Shown here: one piece after another, positions 9,477-29,704 of the stretch
How positions within the stretch are numbered: position 1 is the stretch's first letter
Layout: every line of letters starts with the position of its first letter
DNA from: an uncultured Methanoregulaceae archaeon
GTDB lineage: Archaea > Halobacteriota > Methanomicrobia > Methanomicrobiales > Methanospirillaceae
Direction of reading: 5' to 3'
NCBI GenBank assembly: GCA_963717525.1
Contig: OY970343.1
Coordinates: forward strand, 2,048,001-2,112,000
Length of the DNA stretch: 64,000 nucleotides
Notes under the pieces: generated by a model
The model's input: only the letters and a program-made list of their open reading frames with translations
Told to the model about the DNA's origin: nothing
Database searches by the model: none
Position numbers and translations under genes: made by a program

Positions 9477-10367
9477 TTAACTACATTTTTGGCATTCAAC
9501 ATGAACATTAATCTGAGTGAGTCTCTTATTTTTTTGAAATTTTTCATCGAAACTTTTCTGTTTTTTATCAACATATTTATTGAAATCAGTTGTATCGGCG
9601 AGAGAAGTCATTTGATAATATAATTTAATATCCAATTTGGGCGATTGATCGTTGAAATTATTTTGGAATTTCAATTTATTTATTTCATAAATCCTCTCAT
9701 GTTTAGGGATGTATCTCCCCCATTCCTGAATCTCATCACAGATAATTAATAATGCTGAATAGGGATCTTTTACCAAATCAACTTGGTAATTATTTTTGTC
9801 ATGTAGGCAAATGGCAACAAAAGCGTGTATAGCATCAGGAGTCCATTTTCCACTAAAAATTTTGTTCAATCGACTCAATAGTATTTGAGCACTATCTCCT
9901 CCGTGAAGATCATGACGGTTTATATACCCGACATCGTGGTAAAATGCCGTTAGATACCATACAAAATAGAATTTATTCTCACTGTTTGTTACAGCATTAA
10001 TATAACGAGAAAATCCATTGCGATATAGCCAAAGACCTAAGCACCAAACATGAAATGAATGGCAAACATGATCGCGACGTTTTCTATTAGCATTCGCATT
10101 TGATTCAAACTCCCATAAATCTTCTAATAAATCTGGAAAATCTTTTTTATATAATTTCCCGAATTTTTTCATGAAGGTGATAATCGTCTCTTTAGTCTCT
10201 TTCGAACATTTTCCTGAAGATATTTTTTTCAGTTTTTCGCAATCTTCAATGGAAGGACCACCGGTAGAAAGAAATTTTAGCGATTTAATCACTGAAATTG
10301 CTTCATCAATGAACGGGTTCTCTTTGATTAGGAATACCCGATTTACATTTTGAGGATTTTCAATCAT
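9477..10367 (-). CDS. HD-domain metal-dependent phosphohydrolase-like protein, last gene of the hsdMS operon
   Basis: RDHVCHS, AFYHDVGY, HG..SA, CLHD, LLIICDEIQEWGR. ATG at 10367 overlaps the hsdS TGA (ATGA). AT-rich. Confidence 0.7.
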   Translation of the reverse strand: MIENPQNVNRVFLIKENPFIDEAISVIKSLKFLSTGGPSIEDCEKLKKISSGKCSKETKETIITFMKKFGKLYKKDFPDLLEDLWEFESNANANRKRRDHVCHSFHVWCLGLWLYRNGFSRYINAVTNSENKFYFVWYLTAFYHDVGYINRHDLHGGDSAQILLSRLNKIFSGKWTPDAIHAFVAICLHDKNNYQVDLVKDPYSALLIICDEIQEWGRYIPKHERIYEINKLKFQNNFNDQSPKLDIKLYYQMTSLADTTDFNKYVDKKQKSFDEKFQKNKRLTQINVHVECQKCS

Positions 10368-11704
10368 TTCAATTCCCCTCTGAACGCCTTCCCCAGCACC
10401 GCCTGCGTCAACCGCTCGCACCGCCGGCCCGCCACCTCAACTTCGCGATCAATCGCATCCGCGCGCTCAAACAGCAAACCGACACGCCGGACAATCTCGC
10501 GCTGCTCGGCAAGGGTCGGGAGGGGGATTTTAATTTTTTTCACGTCTTTACAATTCAGATGTTTTAAGGTAATTCCTGTCTGAATTTGCCGGGTCGCATT
10601 TTGACCGGTTATTGAGGAAAAATATATTGAAAGATAATGCCCATCTAAACTTTCTCCCTTCGGAGTAATTACGATTAATGCGTGACAATTATGCCCTACG
10701 TGGTCATCATCAACAACAGCGGTTTGTCCAATGTCTCCAGATTGAACAACTAATACATCACCTTTTTTCAGAATTGATTTTCGATTTTTTTGATTAAATT
10801 CTTCAGAAATGAACGTTCTTTGATCAAAAATTATTTTATGTTTTTTTATGTGACGAGCCAGAAGATATGGTATTCCGCTTTCGATGTAAATATCTCGGGT
10901 TGGACCAACATAACCATTAGTCAATCTTGAAACATGATTTTCAATTGCCTCAAGTCTCCAACTCTGTGGCAATGAAACCTCTGTATCTTCGTCATTGATT
11001 GATTTCTTTTCACATGAATCGAGCTGCACCAACCGTCCCTCAATCGCAGATTGCAAAACAGCTTCTCGGAACCGTTTCATGATCAACGGCACCCGGTTCA
11101 GCCGCTCGCGGGTGGCATTGACGTGCGACAGGAGGGCTTCGACACGAGCGACGATGCGCTGCTGTTCGGCGAGCGGGGGGAGTAATATCTGTGTATCCAA
11201 TAACACTTGCCGTCCGACACTGGATTGAGATACGTGGTTATTGCAGACCGATTTGAAATAACCCTCCCGCCATTTTTGATGCAATACCATCGCACAAAAA
11301 ACCGGATCGATCAATTCCTTATTGCATCGCAATCTGGTCATATGGTTGGAAAATGCTCGCGGTTCTGGAAGATTGTAGTACGCCGTTTTTCCAACAAGAG
11401 CGGGGCTATTAGTGTTGTTAAAAATCACATCGCCTTCATTTACAAATCGTTCCGGCTTTGAACATTCGGATTCAGGAACAAATTTTAAATCTGTCAGATC
11501 TATTTGCCCTTTTTCGGTAACATTCATTGGCCGAATATGAGGAATTCCTTGACCGTCACGTGTATTTTTACCACATGCAAACCCCGGTTGGATATCAAGA
11601 ATAAGATCCTCACAAAGTTTTTTGAGTTCCCATCCGTCCGGAACTTCAGACTCATCAAAAAATTGCGGGGAATCTGATGATTCGATCTTTGCCGGCTTCA
11701 TCAT
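10364..11704 (-). CDS. hsdS: Type I restriction-modification specificity subunit
   Basis: Two AT-rich TRDs flanked by conserved VPDGW/LPQSW and PPLAEQQRIV/PTLAEQREIV. C-terminus QAVLGKAFRGEL. Confidence 0.93.
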   Translation of the reverse strand: MMKPAKIESSDSPQFFDESEVPDGWELKKLCEDLILDIQPGFACGKNTRDGQGIPHIRPMNVTEKGQIDLTDLKFVPESECSKPERFVNEGDVIFNNTNSPALVGKTAYYNLPEPRAFSNHMTRLRCNKELIDPVFCAMVLHQKWREGYFKSVCNNHVSQSSVGRQVLLDTQILLPPLAEQQRIVARVEALLSHVNATRERLNRVPLIMKRFREAVLQSAIEGRLVQLDSCEKKSINDEDTEVSLPQSWRLEAIENHVSRLTNGYVGPTRDIYIESGIPYLLARHIKKHKIIFDQRTFISEEFNQKNRKSILKKGDVLVVQSGDIGQTAVVDDDHVGHNCHALIVITPKGESLDGHYLSIYFSSITGQNATRQIQTGITLKHLNCKDVKKIKIPLPTLAEQREIVRRVGLLFERADAIDREVEVAGRRCERLTQAVLGKAFRGELK

Positions 11705-13134
11705 ACCCCATGTGTAGTGTCTGATCCGTTCCCGTTCTCCAGCAGCACCACAACCTTCTGGAGCTCGTCCACCGCCCCCCGCAGTTCCTCTATCGCATCG
11801 GTGGCAAGTTCCTCCGGCTCCGGGAGATCGTCCGCATCATCGAGCGAATCGTCCTTGAGCCACTTGAGCGAATCGATCTTGTAGTTCCGCTCCTTGACCT
11901 CGCTGATGTGGAACGAGTGCCAGCGATCTTCTTTCGAGTCCGCCACATTGCGTTTCGAGCCGCCGTTCGGATCGGCGCCGTATACTTTTTCGAACTCTGC
12001 GAAATATTCCGGTGTTAATGGCCGGTCCTTTTTTGTGATCCCCGGCACGTTCGTCCGGTCGTCGTACACCCAGATCGTTTCTGTCGAGAATCCCTTCGTG
12101 AAGAAGAGGACGTTTGTTTTCGTGCCCGGGGAATAGGGCGTGAAGGTGCCGTTGGGGAGTCTCAGGATCGTGTGCAGGTTGCAGTCCTCGGTCAGCACCT
12201 TGAATACTTCGCCAGCCTGGTCTGCAAAGAGCACGTTGTCCGGCACCACGACCGCCGCCCGTCCGCCGGGTTTGAGGATCGTCATCACATGTTGCACGAA
12301 ATTGAGCTGCTTGTTGGACGTGGAAACCACGAAGTCATCCCGGTCCGGTGCCTGGTTTGCACCTTTTGTCCCAAACGGCGGGTTTGTCAGCACCACATCA
12401 AAGCGCCGGCTGTCCGGGTTCTCGTAGATCGAGTCCCCGAATTTGATCTCCGGCTCAAGGTTGCGCAGGAACAGGTTCATCAGCGCTAAGCGGCGCGGGC
12501 GGGCGACAAGGTCCTGCCCAAAGTAGGTACCTTTCCTCACCCGTTTTGCGAGGTCGCGTTCCAGCGCCCCGCCGGTCTTATCGATCAGCCATTCGTACGA
12601 ACAGATCAAGAACCCGCCGGTCCCACACGCCGGATCGCAGATCGTAAAATCCGCTTTCTTCCGGGGATCGGGTTTCACGCACCGGACAATCGACTGGATC
12701 AGGGTACGCGGCGTGAAGTACTGCCCGGCACCCTTCTTTCCCTCGCTTGCCGCTTTTTCCAGAAGCCCCTCGAACGCCTCGGCCTTCACATCAACGTTGA
12801 GTTCGGTCCATGCCGTCTCATCGATCAGGCCGATCAGTTTCTTTAAATTCACCGGGTTCGTGAACCGCGAGAGCGCCCCGGCAAAAATATCGCCAAGAAG
12901 GCCGGGCTGCTGCCCGAGTGTCCGGAGCACGTCCACGTAATGATCGGAGAGGTTGGTGCCGGACTTCTCCATGAGGGTTTTCCAGTCGCAGCCTTCGGGA
13001 AGTTTCACGCTCCGCTCATCGGCCATCTTGATGAACAGGAGATACGTGATCTGCTCGATGTAATCCCCGTAATCGATCCCGTCATGCCGGAGCGTGTGGC
13101 AGAATCCCCAGAGCTTCTGGACAACGTCGCTCAT
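11701..13134 (-). CDS. hsdM: Type I R-M methyltransferase subunit (m6A)
   Basis: GQYFTPR, DPACGTGGFL, TNPPFG. Likely start MSDVVQKLW at 13134. The stop overlaps the hsdS start. Confidence 0.95.
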   Translation of the reverse strand: MSDVVQKLWGFCHTLRHDGIDYGDYIEQITYLLFIKMADERSVKLPEGCDWKTLMEKSGTNLSDHYVDVLRTLGQQPGLLGDIFAGALSRFTNPVNLKKLIGLIDETAWTELNVDVKAEAFEGLLEKAASEGKKGAGQYFTPRTLIQSIVRCVKPDPRKKADFTICDPACGTGGFLICSYEWLIDKTGGALERDLAKRVRKGTYFGQDLVARPRRLALMNLFLRNLEPEIKFGDSIYENPDSRRFDVVLTNPPFGTKGANQAPDRDDFVVSTSNKQLNFVQHVMTILKPGGRAAVVVPDNVLFADQAGEVFKVLTEDCNLHTILRLPNGTFTPYSPGTKTNVLFFTKGFSTETIWVYDDRTNVPGITKKDRPLTPEYFAEFEKVYGADPNGGSKRNVADSKEDRWHSFHISEVKERNYKIDSLKWLKDDSLDDADDLPEPEELATDAIEELRGAVDELQKVVVLLENGNGSDTTHGV

Positions 13135-13245
13135 ATGTTGTACACTGGTGCAACCGGCTCCCGCATTAACATGATCTTTTCTTCTTTTTGTCGCATCCAT
13201 GCATACACCAGTAGCCTGATATCCTACACCGCACTACACTTGAGC

Positions 13246-21082: not shown

Positions 21083-22681
21083 CTACGCCATGGGCGGCAT
21101 GGACGGGGCATTCTTGGACTGCGTAATCATCATGTCGTCGACACGGATCAGCATGATGGCAGTCTCGGAGGCACTCTCAATAGACTGGCGCTTTGACCGG
21201 AGCGGTTCAAGCACTCCCTCGCCGAGCATATCGATGATCTCGCCGTTATAGACGTTGAGACCGGCAGTCTTCTTGCCCTTTGCATGGGCGTTCTTGAGCG
21301 CTACCAGCTTGTCGATCGAATTGTACCCGGAGTTCTCTGCAAGAGTACGGGGGATCGTCTCAAAAGCCTTCGCATACCCCTCGATTGCAAGCTGCACACG
21401 GCCTCCGACCGTCTCTGCGTAGTCCCGGATCTTCATCAAAAGCTCGGTCTCGACTGCACCTCCGCCGACAACATAGGTCCCGTCCTCGATTGCGTCCATG
21501 ACCACGCGGGTACCGTCAACGACCGCACGCTCGAGTTCGTCGAGCAGGTAGTCGCTTGTGCCCCGGATGAGGATGGTAATGGCCTTGGGGTTCTTGCAGC
21601 CGGAGATCCGGGTGATGTCGGTGTCGTTGTCCTCTTCGACAACCTCTGCATGACCGAGATCTTTTGCGGTCAGGTCTTCGGGCTTGTTGACAATATTTGC
21701 ATTCAGCGCCCGGGCGGCATACTTGAGATCCTTTTCCGGGACATCCTCAACCGCATAGATGCCGTTCTTGGCAAGGAAGAACTGGACCGGGTCTGCGATG
21801 CCTTTCTGGCAGAACACCACGTTCGCCCCGGCATTAACGATAGCATCGGCGAGCTTCCTCAGGGTTGCCCGCTCCTGTTCGGAGAAGGCAGCAATCTGGT
21901 CGGCAGTCGTGATCTTGATCTTCGCCTTTACCTGCGTTTTTGTGATCTCCATGGGAGTCGCGATGAGCGCGATCCTGGCCGCAGTAACTTTCTTTGGCAT
22001 ATCTTCGCTGACCCGTTTCTTGTCAAGGATGATGCCCCGGACGAGTTCGGCGTCGTTCATCGACCGGCCCTTCTGCTTCTTGATCATCACGTCGTCTTCA
22101 TCGGCGAGGTACTTGCCGTTCGTCTTCTCCGCGATGGCCATCACTGCGTCAACGATGATGCCGTCGAGTTTTTCCTTGACCGATTCGATTGATTTGCCGG
22201 TGATCGCGGTGTCGGCAATCTTCAAGAGCGTCTTTCTGTCCCTGGGATCTACCTTGAAGGAGAGCGCGTCGGTAATTTCGAGCGCCTTTTGCATACCCTG
22301 CCGGTATCCCTGTGCGATTACGGTCGGGTGGATGCCCTGCTCCAGCAGGTCCTCTGCCTGCTCCATCAGCGACCCGGCAATGACAACGGCCGTGGTGGTT
22401 CCGTCCCCGACCTCGTCATCCTGGGTCTTTGCCACTTCGATGACCATCTTCGCACCGGGGTGCTGGACCGAGATTTCCTGTAATATTGTCGCGCCGTCAT
22501 TGGTGATGACAATGTCACCGGTTGAATCGACGAGCATCTTGTCCATGCCCCGGGGGCCCAGCGTTGTCCGGACCGCACCGGCAATCGCTTTTGCGGCCAT
22601 GATATTCGAGCGCTGTGCCTCCTTGCCGGTGTTACGCTCCACATTGTCTCGTAAAATGATGATTGGTTGACCAGATAACAT
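21083..22681 (-). CDS. Thermosome (group II chaperonin) subunit
   Basis: TLGPRGMDKM, ITNDGATIL, GDGTTT, GGGAVE, LIRVDD. Confidence 0.96.
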   Translation of the reverse strand: MLSGQPIIILRDNVERNTGKEAQRSNIMAAKAIAGAVRTTLGPRGMDKMLVDSTGDIVITNDGATILQEISVQHPGAKMVIEVAKTQDDEVGDGTTTAVVIAGSLMEQAEDLLEQGIHPTVIAQGYRQGMQKALEITDALSFKVDPRDRKTLLKIADTAITGKSIESVKEKLDGIIVDAVMAIAEKTNGKYLADEDDVMIKKQKGRSMNDAELVRGIILDKKRVSEDMPKKVTAARIALIATPMEITKTQVKAKIKITTADQIAAFSEQERATLRKLADAIVNAGANVVFCQKGIADPVQFFLAKNGIYAVEDVPEKDLKYAARALNANIVNKPEDLTAKDLGHAEVVEEDNDTDITRISGCKNPKAITILIRGTSDYLLDELERAVVDGTRVVMDAIEDGTYVVGGGAVETELLMKIRDYAETVGGRVQLAIEGYAKAFETIPRTLAENSGYNSIDKLVALKNAHAKGKKTAGLNVYNGEIIDMLGEGVLEPLRSKRQSIESASETAIMLIRVDDMMITQSKNAPSMPPMA

Positions 22682-22720: not shown

Positions 22721-22740
22721 CTATATATATCATTCCCTTA
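22721..22740 (-). promoter_or_regulatory. Probable TATA box and BRE of the thermosome gene
   Basis: On the minus strand, purine-rich TAAGGGAATG is followed by ATATATATAG about 40 nt upstream of ATG 22681. Confidence 0.5.
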
Positions 22741-22742
22741 GT
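22735..22742 (+). repeat. Left target-site duplication CCCTTAGT
   Basis: Identical 8-mer at 29068-29075. Each copy directly abuts a terminal inverted repeat. Confidence 0.92.
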
Positions 22743-22803
22743 GGTTCTGTTGCGTCTTAGGTTGATCGTTGCATTTGCCCCATGCTGTTGCATCGCGGTT
22801 GAT
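22743..22803 (+). repeat. Left terminal inverted repeat (bipartite, 61 bp)
   Basis: GGTTC-TGTTGC-gtctta-GGTTGAT-N19-TGTTGC-atcgc-GGTTGAT. Confidence 0.9.
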
Positions 22804-22876
22804 ATGCGCGCGGGTGTCTTGATGCATTATTCCTATTTTAATAAAAATTATTAAAATAGAAATGGCTATTAGGATT

Positions 22877-23158
22877 ATGAGCTCAATCGAATCATCTTTT
22901 GCTAATGTGTGGGATTCGGTTTGTAAACACGAGGGAGAACTTTTCCATACCAAAACAGGATTGCCATTTACTTACTGGACAAAAGGAACCTCGTTATACG
23001 TCGATAGAACAACATGGGCAATAAATCGCAAAAACCTATTATATGCCTACGGGTTGTGGCCGGTATCTGGACCCGGTGTTTTTAATAATGCTGTTAGAGG
23101 GCCTGCATATGTTTGGGCGATTTTTGCTGATGGTAGGATCATAAAAACCGGAGATTGA
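22877..23158 (+). CDS. Small hypothetical cargo protein (93 aa), co-operonic with the HNH gene
   Basis: Open frame VW...HEGELFHTKTGLPFTY...GPG....RGPAYVWAIF. Stops 1 nt before the HNH ATG. Confidence 0.7.
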   Translation: MSSIESSFANVWDSVCKHEGELFHTKTGLPFTYWTKGTSLYVDRTTWAINRKNLLYAYGLWPVSGPGVFNNAVRGPAYVWAIFADGRIIKTGD

Positions 23159-23159
23159 T

Positions 23160-23933
23160 ATGATTAACGTTATTCTATCGAATTTAGAATCTATCAAGAA
23201 ACGGCATTATGCCCAAAAAGCAAAATCTACCGGTTATTGGGTTGCATTTTATGAAAGTGTATTAAACAGATATAAAGCACAATTCGGAGAGGATTTTAAT
23301 TTAATTATATATGGTGACGAGAATCTCCGAGATGATTTTTTCTCCATTCCTTATATACAACTAAAAGATTTCTTGACAGAACCCCATATAGACGAACAAA
23401 AACGAAGATGGGTTTTCAGCATTGAAAACAACATACTCCGAGCACATCGAAATCCCAAGAGAGTTGATATAATGGAATTTCGTGGGAATATAATTGACAT
23501 TCAACCATTATACCAATATCAAACAGTCAAAGATTTGAATAAACTACAGCAGAGGAAAGAAGATACTTTTCAAAAGGACGCCGAATGGTTAAGCCAAGAA
23601 GAATTGATGAGGCGGATTCAATCGCTAGATAGGGGGGCAACACACAGGGAAGGGACCACAAAATATTATCAAAGAAGAGCGATTGTATCCGAATATGCTA
23701 AGAGAAGGGCAAATGGAATATGTCAATTATGCCAACACCCGGCGCCTTTTGTCGATATAAGGAATAAGCCATATCTTGAAGCCCACCATGTGATTTGGTT
23801 GTCCAGAAATGGGGACGATACACCTGAAAATACTGCGGCATTATGTCCGAATTGCCATAGAAAAATGCACATATTGAATATAACATCTGATCAAGAAATT
23901 ATTTTATCAAGAATTTCTGGTGGGGGAGAATAA
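23160..23933 (+). CDS. HNH endonuclease (McrA-like C-terminal domain)
   Basis: RANGICQLC..PAPF....PYLEAHHVIWLS..G.DT.EN.AALCPNCHRKMH. Confidence 0.88.
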   Translation: MINVILSNLESIKKRHYAQKAKSTGYWVAFYESVLNRYKAQFGEDFNLIIYGDENLRDDFFSIPYIQLKDFLTEPHIDEQKRRWVFSIENNILRAHRNPKRVDIMEFRGNIIDIQPLYQYQTVKDLNKLQQRKEDTFQKDAEWLSQEELMRRIQSLDRGATHREGTTKYYQRRAIVSEYAKRRANGICQLCQHPAPFVDIRNKPYLEAHHVIWLSRNGDDTPENTAALCPNCHRKMHILNITSDQEIILSRISGGGE

Positions 23934-23944
23934 ACAAAACAGTC

Positions 23945-24343
23945 CTATTCTCCCCAGTGACCGAATTCAATTAAGTCGCTTAATAAATCAAGACGGCGCT
24001 TATTCTCAACGGTATTTCGAGAATATCTGCGATATTCTTGGTAAAATTTCTCGGCCTCTTCTCGCGTCTCGATAATATACATGCCTTTATTCTTATTCGA
24101 AGCAATGAATATCCCCTCTCCGCGAAGTTTTCCCAAGACATAAATTTCCCACGAGTGGCGACTTATTTTGTGCCCTCTTTCTTTTAAAACTTTCACGATG
24201 GTGTCTGTGGGAACAGCATTTTTTATTCCAATGGAATTCTCCAACAAATAACCAACAGTATCTGTCATAACATCGACATATTTGTCGTCAGATAATTCAC
24301 CAGCAAATTCGAGAAATTCCTTAGCGGCGGTAACAAATGGCAT
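23945..24343 (-). CDS. Hypothetical protein, probable winged-helix DNA-binding domain
   Basis: GIKNAVPTDTIV..L...ISR......LR.EGIFIAS..KGMYIIETREEA pattern. Last gene of the AbrB-MTase-REase run. Confidence 0.55.
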   Translation of the reverse strand: MPFVTAAKEFLEFAGELSDDKYVDVMTDTVGYLLENSIGIKNAVPTDTIVKVLKERGHKISRHSWEIYVLGKLRGEGIFIASNKNKGMYIIETREEAEKFYQEYRRYSRNTVENKRRLDLLSDLIEFGHWGE

Positions 24344-24358
24344 ATGACCATCCCAATA

Positions 24359-24964
24359 TTAAGATGATGCAATTAGTAAATCCCCGGCATATAAAGCCTT
24401 ATTATTTGAGTTAAATTCTAGCTTTATGTCCATTTGATTAAGAGAATAAAGATCACAAAGTTTCCATCCCACGACTCTCCAATATTTTTCTTTCTCCTCG
24501 ACAATATTCCATGCGATTAACAGATGCCTTGCGGAAGATTTAATTTTGTTTCCATTTGTGTAGTAAAAAGATCTGAATTGGCTATCCCAATCTTTACTAA
24601 TGGCCTTTGATTCGAGATATGTAACCCTACCTGATTGATCTTTTATCATAATATCGGGATATCCAGATTTACTCAACAAAGTTGGTGTAAGTACCGATTT
24701 TTTCAATTCTTCAACAAAGGCCTCTTCTATCCTTTTCCCAACATCATTTATTCTGCCTCCCTCATACCGTTGATGAGTCCTTGTAGTGTATGCGATAAAA
24801 TTCCTCGCCGATTTTACAATCTCTTCGTTAAGGGATTTATCTAATTCCGTATTTAGATCAAGTCTAACAACATCAAGTCCCGTCGTCGATTTTACTAGCT
24901 CGGGGAATGATATTTGCCCGGTTAATTCGGAAACATCACTCATAAGTCCTTGAACGGTCGGCAT
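24359..24964 (-). CDS. Putative type II restriction endonuclease (PD-(D/E)xK)
   Basis: G..IEE...GYPDI...TYLESK motif. Lies 21 nt downstream of the DNA MTase, same strand. Confidence 0.7.
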   Translation of the reverse strand: MPTVQGLMSDVSELTGQISFPELVKSTTGLDVVRLDLNTELDKSLNEEIVKSARNFIAYTTRTHQRYEGGRINDVGKRIEEAFVEELKKSVLTPTLLSKSGYPDIMIKDQSGRVTYLESKAISKDWDSQFRSFYYTNGNKIKSSARHLLIAWNIVEEKEKYWRVVGWKLCDLYSLNQMDIKLEFNSNNKALYAGDLLIASS

Positions 24965-24985
24965 AAAACAATAATAGTATTGTAA

Positions 24986-25843
24986 TTATTTTAAATATTT
25001 TAAAAGACCTTTGCTCTTTTTTAATCGCTCATTTGAAATTCTCTCATTGGCGAGATCGATGTACTCTTTGTCAATTTCAAATCCGATATAGTTGATACCC
25101 AGTCTAACGGCAGCTACGGCTGTTGTTCCAATTCCCATAAATGGATCGAGAACGAGCGTATCTTTGCAGATTCCGTCGTGATCTTTTATACACATCTCGG
25201 GTAATCCAACTGGGAACGCACTGGGGTGGGGCCTTGATTCTTGGATCGTTTCATATGGAATGAACCAGGTATTGCCTCGGTCTCTCAAATCGCCGCCATT
25301 TGTCGATTTCCATCTTTTTATATTGCTTTTATCTTGATAGGGAACACCGATAGCTAATTTGTCTAGAGGGACGCGGCCGGTTTTTGTAAAGTGGAAAATA
25401 AATTCGTGGCAATCGTGGTGAAATCTCTTACTGTTAATTGGCTTATAATGCCCAACGGCAACATCGGCTTTAATGTGTGGGTATTTGCCCATACATTCTT
25501 TTGGTATTGCTATCGATTTCACCCAATGAATCATATTCTGAAGGGCGAAATGTTTCCGAAAGACATTTGCAACATCTATTGGTGTCCAAGGATCCGTGAC
25601 GGTTCCACCAACATTTAGGAAAAACGATCCGTCATTTTTCATTACTTTTTTAGAGGCTATCGCTACATCTTCCATCCATTCAAGATATTCATCCCCCGAT
25701 TTTGTATCCTGATATGTTTTGTAGGCTATTCCAATATTGTAAGGTGGCGACGTTACAATTAAATCAACAGAATCCGCACCCAGTTTTTCAAATCCTTTTA
25801 AACAATCCATTTTGTATATTTTATTGGGGACCAACTTTTCCAT
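24986..25843 (-). CDS. Beta-class amino DNA methyltransferase (probably m4C)
   Basis: N-terminal catalytic TSPPY, HPSAFP, C-terminal DPFMGIGTT and GFEID. From memory it resembles M.MjaV (unverified). Confidence 0.92.
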
Positions 25844-25852
25844 GATTGAACG

Positions 25853-26035
25853 TCACCCCTCCTTTCTGATTGGTTTCACAACTAAATGATCCCCCTCTAT
25901 AATCCATTCAAGAGAATCGCCTTTCTGCAAGTTGAATTGGTTTTTGATAAACGAAGGTACTGTAGTTCTCAGCGAGTCTCCAGAAGATGTTGCTGGATTT
26001 AAGATTGTCTCGTTAGCTCGCGGATTTTTTGGCAT
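25853..26035 (-). CDS. AbrB/MazE/SpoVT-family small DNA-binding protein
   Basis: SLRTTVPSFIKNQFNLQKGDSLEW. Divergent from the transposase. Confidence 0.85.
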   Translation of the reverse strand: MPKNPRANETILNPATSSGDSLRTTVPSFIKNQFNLQKGDSLEWIIEGDHLVVKPIRKEG

Positions 26036-26074
26036 AATGTAATGGTATATCTATCTTATACATTATAAATTTTG

Positions 26075-26181
26075 TTACCTTATATACTATAACTCAATTT
26101 ACCTTATGGATTGTTTATTTACCTAATGGGTTACCAATAAGTTTATTACCTTGTATGACTTATAGGTAAATAGAGAGGTAA
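26075..26181. promoter_or_regulatory. Divergent promoter region with iterated TTACCT/AGGTAA motifs
   Basis: TTACCT at 26075, 26099, 26119 and 26146; TTACCA at 26131; inverted AGGTAA at 26164 and 26176. Confidence 0.55.
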
Positions 26182-26186
26182 ATTAA

Positions 26187-27371
26187 ATGAAGCAACTAAC
26201 CGACCCAAGAGAATTAAGAGGACTGGCAATCATCAGCCAGCCCAACACCGTTATCCAGACCGGTGAAAATGAATGGGACGTTCGATCACAATCAAAGGAT
26301 GCCTATTACGTCGTATCCAGAACTTTCCCGTCAGACCGGAAGGCTCGCATCCTCTCACAGGCAACATGGACATGCTCGTGCCCCGACTTCCAGACCCGCC
26401 ATATGCCGTGCAAACACATCCACGCCGTCATGCTCTCGTTAAAACTCGCCGGGGATGTAGAGGGACACAGCACACCTGCGCAGGTTAAAAATGCCGAGCC
26501 AACGATCCTGTGCCCGGCCTGCAAGTCTGCAAGCGTCAGGAAATGGGGGAGCCGCAAGACCCAGTACGGAACCATCCAGCGGTACGCCTGCCATGAATGC
26601 GGCCATACCTTTGTGATCGATAAAGGATTCTCCAAGATGAAAAACAGCCCCAAAACGATCACCCTCACCCTTGACCTTTACTTCAAGGGGGTATCCCTGA
26701 GGAAGATCGCCGACCATCTTACACAGGTTGAAAGCGTCTCCGTCAATCAGGCAACCATTCTCCGGTGGATTCGCAAGTACCTGAAACTGCTATCGGGATA
26801 TGCTGAGAAGTACAAGGCTGATGTCGGAAACATCTGGCACTGTGATGAGACAACGGTATTCATCAAAAAAGAAGGCGAGAAAAAGTATTACGAGTGGATC
26901 TGGAACCTGATGGATGCAAAGACACGATACCTTCTTGCTTGCCAAGTCACTGAAACCCGGTACATCAAGGATGCGCGCAGACCGCTGAGCAAAGCCAAGG
27001 AAGTTACGGAAGTTCGACCGGATGCGATTGTGACCGATGGACTCATGGCATACAAGGACGCGATAAAGGCAGAATATTTTGGACTCGGCAGAATCCAGAA
27101 CCCCCATATCCGCCTTAAGGACTTTGAAACTAAGCCGAATAACAATATCCTTGAACGCCTGAATGGAACATTCCGAGAGCGCACGAAAGTTATGCGAAGC
27201 TTCGACAGTGGGATTGGCGCGGCGGAATTTGCCGCTGGAATGCAGACATATTACAACTATATCCGCCCCCATCAGGGAATCGGTGGAATGGTACCTGCGC
27301 AGATGGCAAACATTCCACTGGATTTAACCGGTAACCGCTGGATGACAATGATTGGGTTGGCGGTAAAGTGA
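26187..27371 (+). CDS. IS6-like DDE transposase with N-terminal SWIM finger and Zn ribbon
   Basis: WTCSCPDF....PCKH (SWIM), CPAC...CHEC, HTH SLRKIA...TILRWI, catalytic WHCDET, VTDG and NNILER, then YNYIRPH. Confidence 0.92.
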   Translation: MKQLTDPRELRGLAIISQPNTVIQTGENEWDVRSQSKDAYYVVSRTFPSDRKARILSQATWTCSCPDFQTRHMPCKHIHAVMLSLKLAGDVEGHSTPAQVKNAEPTILCPACKSASVRKWGSRKTQYGTIQRYACHECGHTFVIDKGFSKMKNSPKTITLTLDLYFKGVSLRKIADHLTQVESVSVNQATILRWIRKYLKLLSGYAEKYKADVGNIWHCDETTVFIKKEGEKKYYEWIWNLMDAKTRYLLACQVTETRYIKDARRPLSKAKEVTEVRPDAIVTDGLMAYKDAIKAEYFGLGRIQNPHIRLKDFETKPNNNILERLNGTFRERTKVMRSFDSGIGAAEFAAGMQTYYNYIRPHQGIGGMVPAQMANIPLDLTGNRWMTMIGLAVK

Positions 27372-27444
27372 GCTTTAAAGGAAACGTTTAATATTTTGAT
27401 TTTATAATGTTAATTACAAATATACTGTCTGTTAAGGTGCAAAA

Positions 27445-27972
27445 TTGGATTTTTTTATCGATTCTGGAGTTGTTATAGGGTATTCTGACACAGGGGATGA
27501 AAAATTTCATGACCCATGCAAAGAATTTATAAGAAAATTCCCTCCAAAAGAAAACGGGTATCATTCGATAAAATATATTGTAAATGAAGAAATACGGAGT
27601 ACTGAAAAGAAGAGACTCGAACAAAGAAAGAAAAATGCACTCAAACTATTCCCACAACGTGCGAAAATATTTTGTGATTTAATAAACGATGTTGCAAATA
27701 AATCGCATTTGTCATTTGATACTCTTTTTAAACAAATACATGATTATTTAATAGCGGTTCGTACTGACCTTAAAAGAAAAGAACACGATGCGAAATTGTT
27801 AACGAGTGCTTTTATTTGGGCATATGAAGATGGAACCTTACAAAATCCTCATTTCATTACTACGGATTGGACGGATATTTGTAAAAACAAACCTAAACTT
27901 TATAGTTTTGTAACGTCTTGTCTCCCTAAAAACTGTTTAAAGATAAGTTTTGTTATCGACTGCGTCTCTTAA
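27445..27972 (+). CDS. PIN-domain protein (putative RNase toxin)
   Basis: FFIDSGVV, EE, EHDAKLL and FITTD..DI acidic PIN pattern. TTG start. Confidence 0.7.
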   Translation: MDFFIDSGVVIGYSDTGDEKFHDPCKEFIRKFPPKENGYHSIKYIVNEEIRSTEKKRLEQRKKNALKLFPQRAKIFCDLINDVANKSHLSFDTLFKQIHDYLIAVRTDLKRKEHDAKLLTSAFIWAYEDGTLQNPHFITTDWTDICKNKPKLYSFVTSCLPKNCLKISFVIDCVS

Positions 27973-28889
27973 CAGGGTTTTAACAAATTAAGTAACTCTA
28001 TTTTCTCATCTTTATTCATTTGGTTTAAGGATTTTTCAATCTCATAATCCATATCTTCGAGGGTGGGAATTAAATTATATCTTTTCACCTTATCTTTCAG
28101 TGCCGTAAAATTATTGGATAGGCCCTCTATCTTTCTTTGAGAATTGGATTCGTATGCCCCCATCTCATATTCAATATTGTCCCCTTTTAACGTGAGAACA
28201 AATGGGAAAATAAATGTGGATATTTCGTTTTCATACATGTTATTGAAGTCAGAGAGGATTTCTTTTACATGGTTAAAATTGGTGTCTCTGTTTCTACAAA
28301 CCATCAAAACACCTTCAAGTAGATCCATGTAATCAAAATAGAGAGGCAAATATTTTTCGTCAACGTGGTTTAATGTGGAATCGAGATTTGAAATTATATC
28401 CGAAAACGTATCATAGAATTTTCCTATATCAACCTTTTTACATTCTGACGCTTCCCCAATTATATCATGAAAAGCGTCATGCCATTTGTATAATGCTTGA
28501 TATTCTGGGGATATCCTATCCTCGTGTGCATATTTTAAAAATTTTTTCCAAGTTCCTGTCATTATTGGTTTCAAGGTGACGATGATGGGCTTTACCATTT
28601 CAACAATTTCAAAATTCACAATACTTTTGTTGATATTTGCTCCATGAAGAGAGCGCGTTACAAAAATTGGTTTTGTTATGCTATGCGCCTGAAAAGAAAA
28701 TTCTCCATGTTTAAAACACCCGTATGAAATTTGACGATACCCAAGATCTTCAATTGATCTTACAACTAGCTTCACAGCTTTGGTTAGAACAACCTTTTTC
28801 CTTTTAGTGGAATACTCTTCATGAGCGGCAAAAAGGATTGAGTTTATTATAACACTTGGTGGGAGTTTGTTGATATCTTCGATATCCAT
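27969..28889 (-). CDS. Hypothetical protein with a possible Panacea/SocA-like N-terminal domain
   Basis: LTKAVKLV...SYGCFKHGEFS resembles the Panacea KL.Y...HGP pattern. Helical C-terminus. Likely start MDIEDINK. Stop overlaps the convergent PIN gene. Confidence 0.5.
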   Translation of the reverse strand: MDIEDINKLPPSVIINSILFAAHEEYSTKRKKVVLTKAVKLVVRSIEDLGYRQISYGCFKHGEFSFQAHSITKPIFVTRSLHGANINKSIVNFEIVEMVKPIIVTLKPIMTGTWKKFLKYAHEDRISPEYQALYKWHDAFHDIIGEASECKKVDIGKFYDTFSDIISNLDSTLNHVDEKYLPLYFDYMDLLEGVLMVCRNRDTNFNHVKEILSDFNNMYENEISTFIFPFVLTLKGDNIEYEMGAYESNSQRKIEGLSNNFTALKDKVKRYNLIPTLEDMDYEIEKSLNQMNKDEKIELLNLLKPC

Positions 28890-29006
28890 TTTCCACCCGA
28901 AACTATTGTAGACACATTTCTTGAGAGGATAGATAATCCTTTTGATATAATATTTGATATTAAATAGACGCACTGCTGCCCAATATCTCTTGCTTGCGCG
29001 CGAAGG

Positions 29007-29067
29007 ATCAACCTTCATGCAACACCAACCGACAACCCGGTTGATCCACCGCAGACGCAACAGAACC
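29007..29067 (-). repeat. Right terminal inverted repeat (bipartite, 61 bp)
   Basis: Reverse complement GGTTC-TGTTGC-gtctgc-GGTGGAT-N19-TGTTGC-atgaa-GGTTGAT, same spacing as the left end. Confidence 0.9.
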
Positions 29068-29075
29068 CCCTTAGT
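29068..29075 (+). repeat. Right target-site duplication CCCTTAGT
   Basis: Identical to 22735-22742. Confidence 0.92.
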
Positions 29076-29098: not shown

Positions 29099-29704
29099 TT
29101 AATCGATACGGGAGATCTTGAAGAGCGAATAGACCGGCACGCCATCAATATCCTTTATGCCGCGCTTGTCGAAAATGACCCATATTGCTACCGGGACTGC
29201 CCCGTGTTTCTTGAGATACTTGACGACCTCCCTCATCGTGTTCCCCGAGGTGATCACGTCATCGACAATAATGCAGCGTTCCTTTGCGACAGGAGCAAAG
29301 TTTCCGCTGATCGACCCGACCGGGTGATCGCTCGTGTTCTGCTTCGAAGGATGGTAGATGGCAAGCTGTGCCGCCTCCTGGACAGAGATGATTGTTGCAA
29401 GGGGAATGCCGGAAAGAGCAATTCCCACGATAACGTCTGCTGAGGCTGATGCCGGGTCTTCCTGTGCACCGTAATACCGGTTTAAGAGCATCAGGGCAAT
29501 CCCGTCAAGCAGCGGCGCCTGGCTGCTCACGGCAGTCCAGTCGATATGGACATCCTTTGGCGCTGCCGCCCCGCCGTTTGCCTGGGTTAAAAGCCAGGTC
29601 ACCGTTTCCATGGAAAGGGAGAGCTCGTCTGCAATCTGGCCGGGGCTGTGGCCTTCGGATAAAAGGAGTTTTGCCCGGGCTATCAGATCATCAAGGGAAG
29701 ACAT
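29099..29704 (-). CDS. Orotate phosphoribosyltransferase-like protein with N-terminal HTH (GfcR/PyrE-like)
   Basis: [25 protein letters not shown] plus PRPP loop [11 protein letters not shown]. Confidence 0.88.

Follow-up and report, generated by a model that had tools for sequence, protein, structure and literature searches.

Insertion sequences (IS) of the IS6/IS26 group are short (~0.7-0.9 kb, or 1.2-1.8 kb in the long members), encode a transposase of 213-254 aa and carry cargo between two directly repeated IS copies. Those parts of the IS6 reviews that were available to us describe compact elements, with one passenger-carrying member (ISDsp3), and within those parts a SWIM-bearing archaeal clade is not described (PMC7986276, PMC6807381). 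The element reported here lies in a stretch of 64,000 nucleotides from the genome of an uncultured Methanoregulaceae archaeon (contig OY970343.1, positions 2,048,001 to 2,112,000; hereafter the window) and belongs to what, judged from sequence, is an apparently undescribed, widespread archaeal family of autonomous unit transposons with bipartite ends. These elements share with IS6/IS26 ends that begin GG with G at position 7, an 8-bp target site duplication (TSD) and an IS240-type DDE core, and with ISCpe7, from the long, zinc-finger clade VII, an N-terminal zinc finger. However, they are 2.2-11 kb long and have one transposase (394 aa in the window element) and one pair of ends, with the cargo inside. 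They differ further in an extra SWIM finger, in the bipartite ends, in a fixed promoter target and in forming a clade apart from compact archaeal IS6, and the window transposase departs from the IS6 signature, which the accessible text of PMC6807381 gives as E-DH---K (bacterial) or E--F---K-R (archaeal). That the family exists, and that it inserts at a fixed offset from TATA boxes, we regard as close to certain.

Insertion near promoters has precedents. According to the available part of PMC3942029, TnGBS, ISLre2 and ISKra4 elements (p-MULT 3 and 4) insert on the upstream side of the sigma-A -35 box at a distance of 15-17 bp, and for the archaeal ISH6 only an AT-rich duplicated motif is noted there. 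The p-MULT elements resemble the present family in having DDE enzymes, a fixed distance upstream of promoters and, in some cases, cargo, but they are bacterial, Mutator-like (IS256-related), associated with sigma-A and mostly oriented, whereas the elements described here are archaeal and IS6-like, lie beside a TATA box and B recognition element (BRE) and occur in both orientations. Ty3 contacts the TATA-binding protein (TBP) in TFIIIB, as stated in the portion consulted of bioRxiv 10.1101/2021.07.27.453949; there a DDE integrase is placed precisely by a TBP-containing general transcription factor and the insertion is harmless, as we propose for the archaeal family, the binding being shown for Ty3. 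Ty3 differs in being a eukaryotic long terminal repeat retroelement with a chromodomain that is directed to RNA polymerase III genes. Thaumarchaeal integrated elements and casposons are likewise archaeal, have terminal inverted repeats, TSDs and cargo and insert in tandem at a single site, but casposons use Cas1 and PolB; in the part of this 2019 survey to which we had access, passenger-carrying composite transposons are among the classes not detected in archaea (PMC6563490). Neither the family nor TATA-anchored archaeal insertion is described in the full texts searched, a scope outside which fall most subscription papers, supplements and ISfinder/TnCentral, and the supplementary tables of PMC6563490 could list members.

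The window element occupies positions 22743-29067 (6,325 bp). It is bounded by a perfect 15-bp inverted repeat (IR; 22743-22757 versus 29053-29067) that reaches 25 nt at 88% identity (the ends overall measure ~24 bp), and both IR ends are abutted by the 8-bp direct repeat CCCTTAGT (22735-22742 and 29068-29075). Both ends begin GG with G at position 7, as in the family end profile, and the end core is repeated once inside each end, starting at nt 44 (22786-22804 and 29006-29024); no further end was found inside the element at a position weight matrix score of at least 15. The 2.29-Mb genome contains 312 perfect 15-mer inverted pairs spaced 0.5-20 kb apart, of which only the 22743/29067 pair has a flanking 8-bp direct repeat. 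The G+C content of the element is 39%, against 54.5% for the genome. Contigs from sequencing run X10, whose study carries no flag as a possible source, span both junctions with zero differences. No circle or cointegrate joint was present among the sequencing-run contigs, although contigs alone are uninformative on this point. The element is confirmed as a real, intact unit transposon. An earlier note on this DNA had proposed just this, a unit transposon with a single transposase, bounded by IS6-like ends and flanked by an 8-bp TSD; its coordinates for the IR and the abutting repeats proved exact, and the one intact transposase (26187-27371, 394 aa) and eight passenger open reading frames (ORFs) that it listed were all found. 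The ends and the host site comprise the following features.

21083-22681, minus strand: host thermosome (group II chaperonin) gene, to which the target promoter belongs (Pfam Cpn60_TCP1, E=4e-172)
22722-22729, minus strand: putative TATA box of the thermosome promoter, starting 5 nt past the TSD (from sequence; same offset across the family)
22730-22734, minus strand: 5-nt spacer, probable BRE (TFB site), from base counts across elements
22735-22742, no strand: left TSD, 8 bp (from sequence)
22743-22767, plus strand: left terminal inverted repeat, perfect over 15 bp and 88% identical over 25 bp
22786-22804, plus strand: second, inner site of the left end at nt 44, similar in sequence to a transposase-binding site
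29006-29024, minus strand: second, internal site of the right end, by sequence likeness
29043-29067, minus strand: right terminal inverted repeat (from sequence)
29068-29075, no strand: right TSD, 8 bp (from sequence)
29099-29704, minus strand: host gene for a pyrE-like phosphoribosyltransferase, with 23 nt between its end and the TSD (Pfam Pribosyltran, E=3e-16)

The earlier note had suggested looking for an empty site in related genomes. Comparison with the best 19 of 40 relatives showed the thermosome and pyrE-like flanks adjacent, with the element absent, in 19/19 loci, and at none of the 15 loci where the junction could be read in register were two TSD copies or both ends retained, the outcome that the note had named as damaging to its proposal. 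A contig of run X14 joins both flanks with 26 other letters between them and represents the empty site of a relative. Two of the empty-site loci hold end-like sequence at the site, a 10-nt motif in L004 and one end with ~90 nt in L003, which suggests that the same spot had received earlier visits.

To call elements elsewhere, a caller was used that required only an inverted repeat matching at 11 of 14 positions, in direct contact with an 8-bp direct repeat, and was blind to both TATA and end sequence. The first set, 130 loci in which 118 out of 144 transposase hits were full length, gave 79 calls; after two calls with ends other than GGT had been dropped, and nested or duplicate calls merged, 56 unique elements of 2.3-11.0 kb (median 5.0) were left. 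Altogether ~120 elements of 2.2-11 kb were called in Halobacteriota, Bathyarchaeia, Nitrososphaeria, Thermoplasmata and Asgard archaea, so that the placing of such transposons 'in methanogens' by the earlier note was right as to their presence there and too narrow as to their range. The IRs of the transposase homologues are distant from the gene; close-flanking IRs, which would have counted against a cargo-carrying unit, were not the pattern. A second site is present in 106/112 family ends, at nt 44 in 96 of them. One genome has two identical copies of a 2,234-bp element, at separate sites whose TSDs differ. For 27/56 elements another end lies 8 bp away, and the same TSD recurs along tandem arrays. 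The genome of the window has a second member (G000:C1:1834962-1838924; 3,963 bp; transposase 76% identical), which lies upstream of the other thermosome gene and is stacked 8 bp from the orphan end of an older element at 1838933.

What the earlier note had missed was the main feature, that insertion takes place at a fixed distance upstream of TATA boxes. The first hints came from the earliest elements examined, in which a TATA box lay 5 nt past the TSD. The TATA consensus TTTAWATA was scored by its offset from the TSD, with non-coding positions as background. Four of the 56 elements have ends on both sides; among the 52 with host flank, 25 had an exact match at offset 5, 39 a match with at most one mismatch and 48 with at most two, where the background was 0.02, 0.28 and 2.4%, respectively. 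When 79 host flanks of at least 50 nt were scanned with no side chosen, there were 24 exact matches and all were at offset 5 among offsets 0-40. The promoter was on the left in 25 cases and on the right in 23, so that orientation is unbiased, and the TATA motif is one-sided and outside the TSD, which itself shows loose base preferences only. With the thermosome targets removed, 12/23 still matched with at most one mismatch.

The same offset was found out of sample. From 77 loci, six seen before were removed, and the remaining 71 gave 46 elements (2.4-8.1 kb) in Bathyarchaeia, Nitrososphaeria, Thermoplasmata, Atabeyarchaeia and Methanoperedens, with a TSD of 8 bp in 42 and of 9 bp in the other four, as in a subfamily that lacks SWIM. 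Of the 45 with host flank, 5, 18 and 28 matched with none, at most one and at most two mismatches (background in the same loci 0.02, 0.33 and 3.1%), or 4, 17 and 27 of 44 once L391, a duplicate of L147, was left out. A further 20 elements from other Halobacteriota families and Nitrososphaerota, hand-picked for family-like ends, included 16 with at most one mismatch. Five of these 20 lack SWIM and have 9-bp TSDs, and they keep the offset (4/5 with at most one mismatch); SWIM was accordingly rejected as the TATA-targeting domain. Compact IS6 elements with TSDs (695-701 bp), drawn from 30 loci of which seven were long-family members, had no TATA box at offset 5 (0/6), and on this small control the offset was rejected as a general IS6 trait. 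Between TATA box and TSD, A is found at -4 and -3 in 27 and 25 of 33 distinct spacers, and the last TSD base, at -6, is a purine in 37/42; both preferences fit the BRE consensus. In L025 and L036 the TATA box is degenerate and an HSR1-type box is kept at the usual distance.

Among the promoters hit in the first set, 21 of the 52 targets belong to one thermosome gene, eight to the other, 15 have a (loosely matched) CTAAC-N5-GTTAG box and eight are of other kinds. Thus 44/52 are thermosome or HSR1-box promoters, and these look like heat-shock promoters, whereas by inspection only ~4 of the ~48 distinct strong-TATA promoters in the genome of the window are heat-shock-related. According to the accessible part of PMC9133787, Phr keeps RNA polymerase from binding to the TBP/TFB complex, and CTAAC-N5-GTTAG is the motif bound by HSR1. 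The box stands 22 or 23 nt from the TSD, with the TATA box fixed at 5. Representative target genes encode Cdc48, Hsp20, ClpB and an ArsR-family regulator; L036 has an HSR1-type box and no heat-shock gene, and the targets with no box include sufB, proteasome, valS, ammonium transporter and rpoH genes (by Pfam). SWIM is doubtful as the cause of the heat-shock bias, since SWIM-bearing relatives in other phyla hit varied promoters. In the genome of the window, GAA directly follows the TATA box in both thermosome promoters and in a probable promoter of grpE (G000:C1:867115, 1834948 and 2070729, all minus strand), and two of the three have GAACCAC, which suggests a heat-shock motif distinct from the HSR1 box. 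The promoter flanks of the SWIM-less elements L186, L188 and L169 share a TAGG(A/T)(T/A)TCC-like motif, and two of these promoters drive ammonium transporter and 2Fe-2S ferredoxin genes and are possibly nitrogen-repressed; the idea that NrpR-repressed promoters are the SWIM-less targets found no confirmation in a literature search, and Rfam gave no sRNA at the target loci of this group.

Genome comparison shows that one IS6-related DDE transposase moves everything between two bipartite ends and generates an 8-bp (in some members 9-bp) duplication, that the TSD ends 5 nt upstream of the TATA box with the element in either orientation, and that later elements enter the same spot and stack. In the mechanism that we propose, the transpososome would be positioned by the promoter-bound TBP-TFB of the host and would cut just outside the BRE. 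Because the landing spot is fixed just upstream of promoters, host genes would remain unbroken, and the promoter, left intact, would make the site a safe harbour. A symmetric transpososome on an asymmetric protein complex would fit the one-sided motif outside the TSD, the 25 left and 23 right promoters and the loose TSD preferences. Heat-shock promoters may be favoured in the family of the host because a downstream HSR1/Phr-type repressor can leave TBP-TFB bound with RNA polymerase kept out. Docking of the transposase on promoter-bound TBP/TFB, much as Ty3 docks on TFIIIB, is the most likely reading. On balance it also seems probable that single-enzyme cargo transposons throughout the archaea use the TBP-TFB pre-initiation complex as a base-precise landing pad, and that in some methanogens they prefer repressor-poised heat-shock promoters, where they build tandem arrays of defence genes. 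A predicted complex of the transposase, TBP and the TFB core, modelled without DNA, scored 0.00 and speaks neither for nor against binding.

Other explanations for the offset have to be weighed against docking on TBP/TFB. The TATA motif is the most constant feature of the targets, and DDE transposases often prefer bendable targets, so that the transposase might itself read TATA-box DNA, through sequence or bendability, at a fixed distance and with no host protein; we think this unlikely, as a one-sided motif goes together with unbiased orientation, insertion stays in register at apparently regulated promoters whose TATA boxes are degenerate (L025, L036), and nothing among the targets corresponds to most of the strong TATA promoters that the genome contains. 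Alternatively, the primary tether might be a promoter-bound regulator, either an HSR1/Phr-type repressor or RNA polymerase, with the TATA offset as a by-product. Targets with an HSR1-type box (15/52) and the 29 thermosome promoters would be explained in this way, and HSR1-box targets recur in other families, but the box moves between 22 and 23 nt from the TSD while the TATA box stays at 5, and many targets have no box, which makes such a tether quite improbable.

All of the data are natural, selected insertions, and the site has the end of a gene on one side and a promoter on the other, as it would if insertion were random and the survivors were those that spared genes and promoters. Selection would, however, allow any distance beyond the BRE, whereas exact TATA boxes occur only at offset 5 of 41, and it would not account for stacking with the same TSD in elements that abut another end (27/56); random insertion is therefore scarcely credible. 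IS911 and IS30 target end-like sequences, and the same 27/56 elements, together with the end-like motifs at the position in empty-site loci L003 and L004, could mean that the target is a pre-existing end-like sequence whose proximity to a TATA box was inherited from one old insertion. This too is very improbable: 29/56 elements have no neighbouring end, the same offset is found at many unrelated promoters in several phyla, and the genome's 32 mini-units built of end sequence all lack an 8-bp duplication beside them.

Several observations nevertheless weigh against docking on TBP/TFB, or limit how far it can be taken. Contact of the transposase with TBP or TFB is inferred, and the promoters themselves are assigned from sequence. 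The first set is not independent, as it holds the elements that prompted the idea and 29/52 of its targets share two thermosome promoters. Targeting is leaky, with 17/45 out-of-sample elements showing more than two mismatches at offset 5 (some of these resemble divergent TATA boxes) and six elements clearly off promoters (L194, L399, L403, L412, L413 and, on a viral contig, L414). The obvious targeting candidate, SWIM, is missing from five elements that keep the offset. No element was called for 49/118 full-length transposase hits, mostly near contig ends; L026 and L037, which were recognised by hand, are among the misses of the caller. The heat-shock bias is not kept in Bathyarchaeia or Nitrososphaeria, where targets are varied, and may partly reflect survival, and the ArsR-type target gene is at most a candidate HSR1 orthologue.

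The interior of the window element is made up of the transposase gene and eight cargo genes.

22862-23158, plus strand: 98-aa cargo ORF, homologues in two other elements
23160-23933, plus strand: HNH endonuclease, Type IV (methyl-directed) restriction-like (Pfam HNH, E=8e-10; PADLOC mREase_IV, E=2e-18)
23945-24343, minus strand: 132-aa cargo protein, downstream of the restriction-modification (R-M) pair (phrog_2113, E=9e-4; family in five elements)
24359-24964, minus strand: Type II restriction endonuclease (PADLOC REase_II, E=3e-17, nearly full length)
24986-25843, minus strand: N6/N4 DNA methyltransferase, Type II (Pfam N6_N4_Mtase, E=9e-48; PADLOC MTase_II, E=2e-121)
25853-26035, minus strand: AbrB/MazE-fold gene, divergent from the transposase (Pfam MazE_antitoxin, E=3e-6)
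26187-27371, plus strand: transposase, 394 aa (Pfam DDE_Tnp_IS240, E=1e-14, and SWIM)
27445-27972, plus strand: PIN-like protein, a lead only (Atlas features 0.90 to a cluster with PIN in 28%)
27969-28889, minus strand: 306-aa archaeal protein of DUF8098-type clusters (Atlas 0.96; DUF8098 in 11-17% of members)

The transposase consists of a SWIM finger (C63 C65 C75 H77), a zinc ribbon (C109 C112 C135 C138), a helical region and a DDE core (D220, D284, E323), and these key residues are invariant or near-invariant across the family alignment. Its structure model (predicted local distance difference test score, 91.8) matched, at low identity, the folds of ISCth4, retroviral integrases/intasomes and TnsB. 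The catalytic stretch reads E323-R-L-N-G-T-F-R330 (family consensus ERLHGTxR). IS6 was the best NCBIfam family, with 113.6 bits against a cut-off of 125 (NF033587; several relatives pass at 125-147), compared with 42.9 bits against a cut-off of 150 for IS256. In a midpoint-rooted tree of 39 rows, none of them bacterial, the 27 long transposases split from 12 compact archaeal IS6 proteins with support of 100/100. By sequence, then, the transposase is IS6-related, yet not a compact IS6/IS26 enzyme, and the IS6-like label of the earlier note is not supported in the sense of membership of IS6/IS26 proper. Among 50%-identity representatives there were 317 relatives at E<=1e-30. Named relatives of the transposase are mostly from Methanoregula and Methanoregulaceae; NCBI names such proteins only 'IS1/IS6 family transposase'. 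The closest named plasmid match is ISCpe7-type (29.6% identity over residues 109-386), and no match was found in GenBank phages.

The labels of the earlier note for the HNH, restriction endonuclease, methyltransferase and AbrB genes are borne out by Pfam and PADLOC, the mREase_IV match covering the HNH part only. Its other labels fared less well. The 132-aa protein, called a winged helix-turn-helix, had no Pfam match at E<=0.1 and the helix-turn-helix is unconfirmed; PIN stands as a lead, the Pfam PIN model not being matched; and 'Panacea-like' gives way to the better-fitting DUF8098-type clusters, as the 306-aa protein reached only 0.78 with a SocA_Panacea cluster and E was 0.43 in the comparison that used a related cargo protein. 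The 98-aa ORF had zero matches in Pfam, NCBIfam and PADLOC. The AbrB-fold gene is probably a regulator of the element rather than an antitoxin, because it lies divergently upstream of the transposase, 293-335 nt away, in 7/12 carrier elements and is far from the PIN-like gene. An AbrB-PIN toxin-antitoxin pair was rejected, as the genes are not adjacent; the PIN-like and DUF8098 genes are convergent and do not form an operon. Cargo varies greatly across the 56 elements: its 312 ORFs form 203 families, of which 157 are singletons, although one methyltransferase cluster was present in 20/56. Since 27/108 cargo family representatives (at least 110 aa) matched PADLOC at E<=1e-5, it is fair to call the cargo defence-enriched, although most of it is unassigned. 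Delivery of R-M and toxin genes, as the earlier note had it, is therefore upheld for R-M and defence and not for toxin-antitoxin genes.

Related sequences were also seen outside complete elements. The genome of the window (G000:C1) holds 32 units of 72-111 bp (mostly 79-80 or 91-93) that resemble miniature inverted-repeat transposable elements, each with two inward-facing family ends, in clusters near 0.14, 0.48-0.52, 0.79, 1.02, 1.10-1.14, 1.29-1.31 and 1.69-1.72 Mb. None of the 32 has an 8-bp duplication or a clear TATA box at the offset (1/64 flanks with at most one mismatch), and several flank single genes; a role as gene-cassette sites was unsupported, as one gene enclosed by such units has homologues in four other genomes that are free of them. 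A stand-alone remnant (G000:C1:288401-288944) comprises an AbrB-like gene and the SWIM part of a transposase, and a further transposase fragment lies at G000:C1:536051-536294. The left flank of L034 and the right flank of L106 have the same unrelated sequence, starting GGGGCTTTGCACC directly past the TSD, which is possibly the end of another element using the same site. A tRNA gene (L187:9762-9836) lies within a 3.2-kb SWIM-less element of Methanolobus. A viral contig of 55 kb contains a complete 2.6-kb member with TSD (L414:6555-9138) that does not lie at a TATA box, and viruses may carry family elements between hosts. The window has a second AT-rich block after a Cdc48-like gene (9477-13200, continuing to ~17000), whose ORFs appear on inspection to encode Type I R-M specificity and methylase subunits. 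An extra TFB gene lies beside an extra TBP gene at G000:C1:502415-504202; this genome has two TFB and four TBP genes, and the other 40 genomes searched gave one TFB match each.

The family is a common vehicle for defence genes in archaea, and in uncultured lineages it pinpoints archaeal TATA boxes with single-base precision. It also offers archaeal genetics a tool that needs one protein for safe-harbour integration of multi-kilobase DNA. If tethering to TBP/TFB is true, these elements would represent a prokaryotic transposase that has co-opted TATA-type general transcription factors, in convergence with Ty3 and TnGBS.

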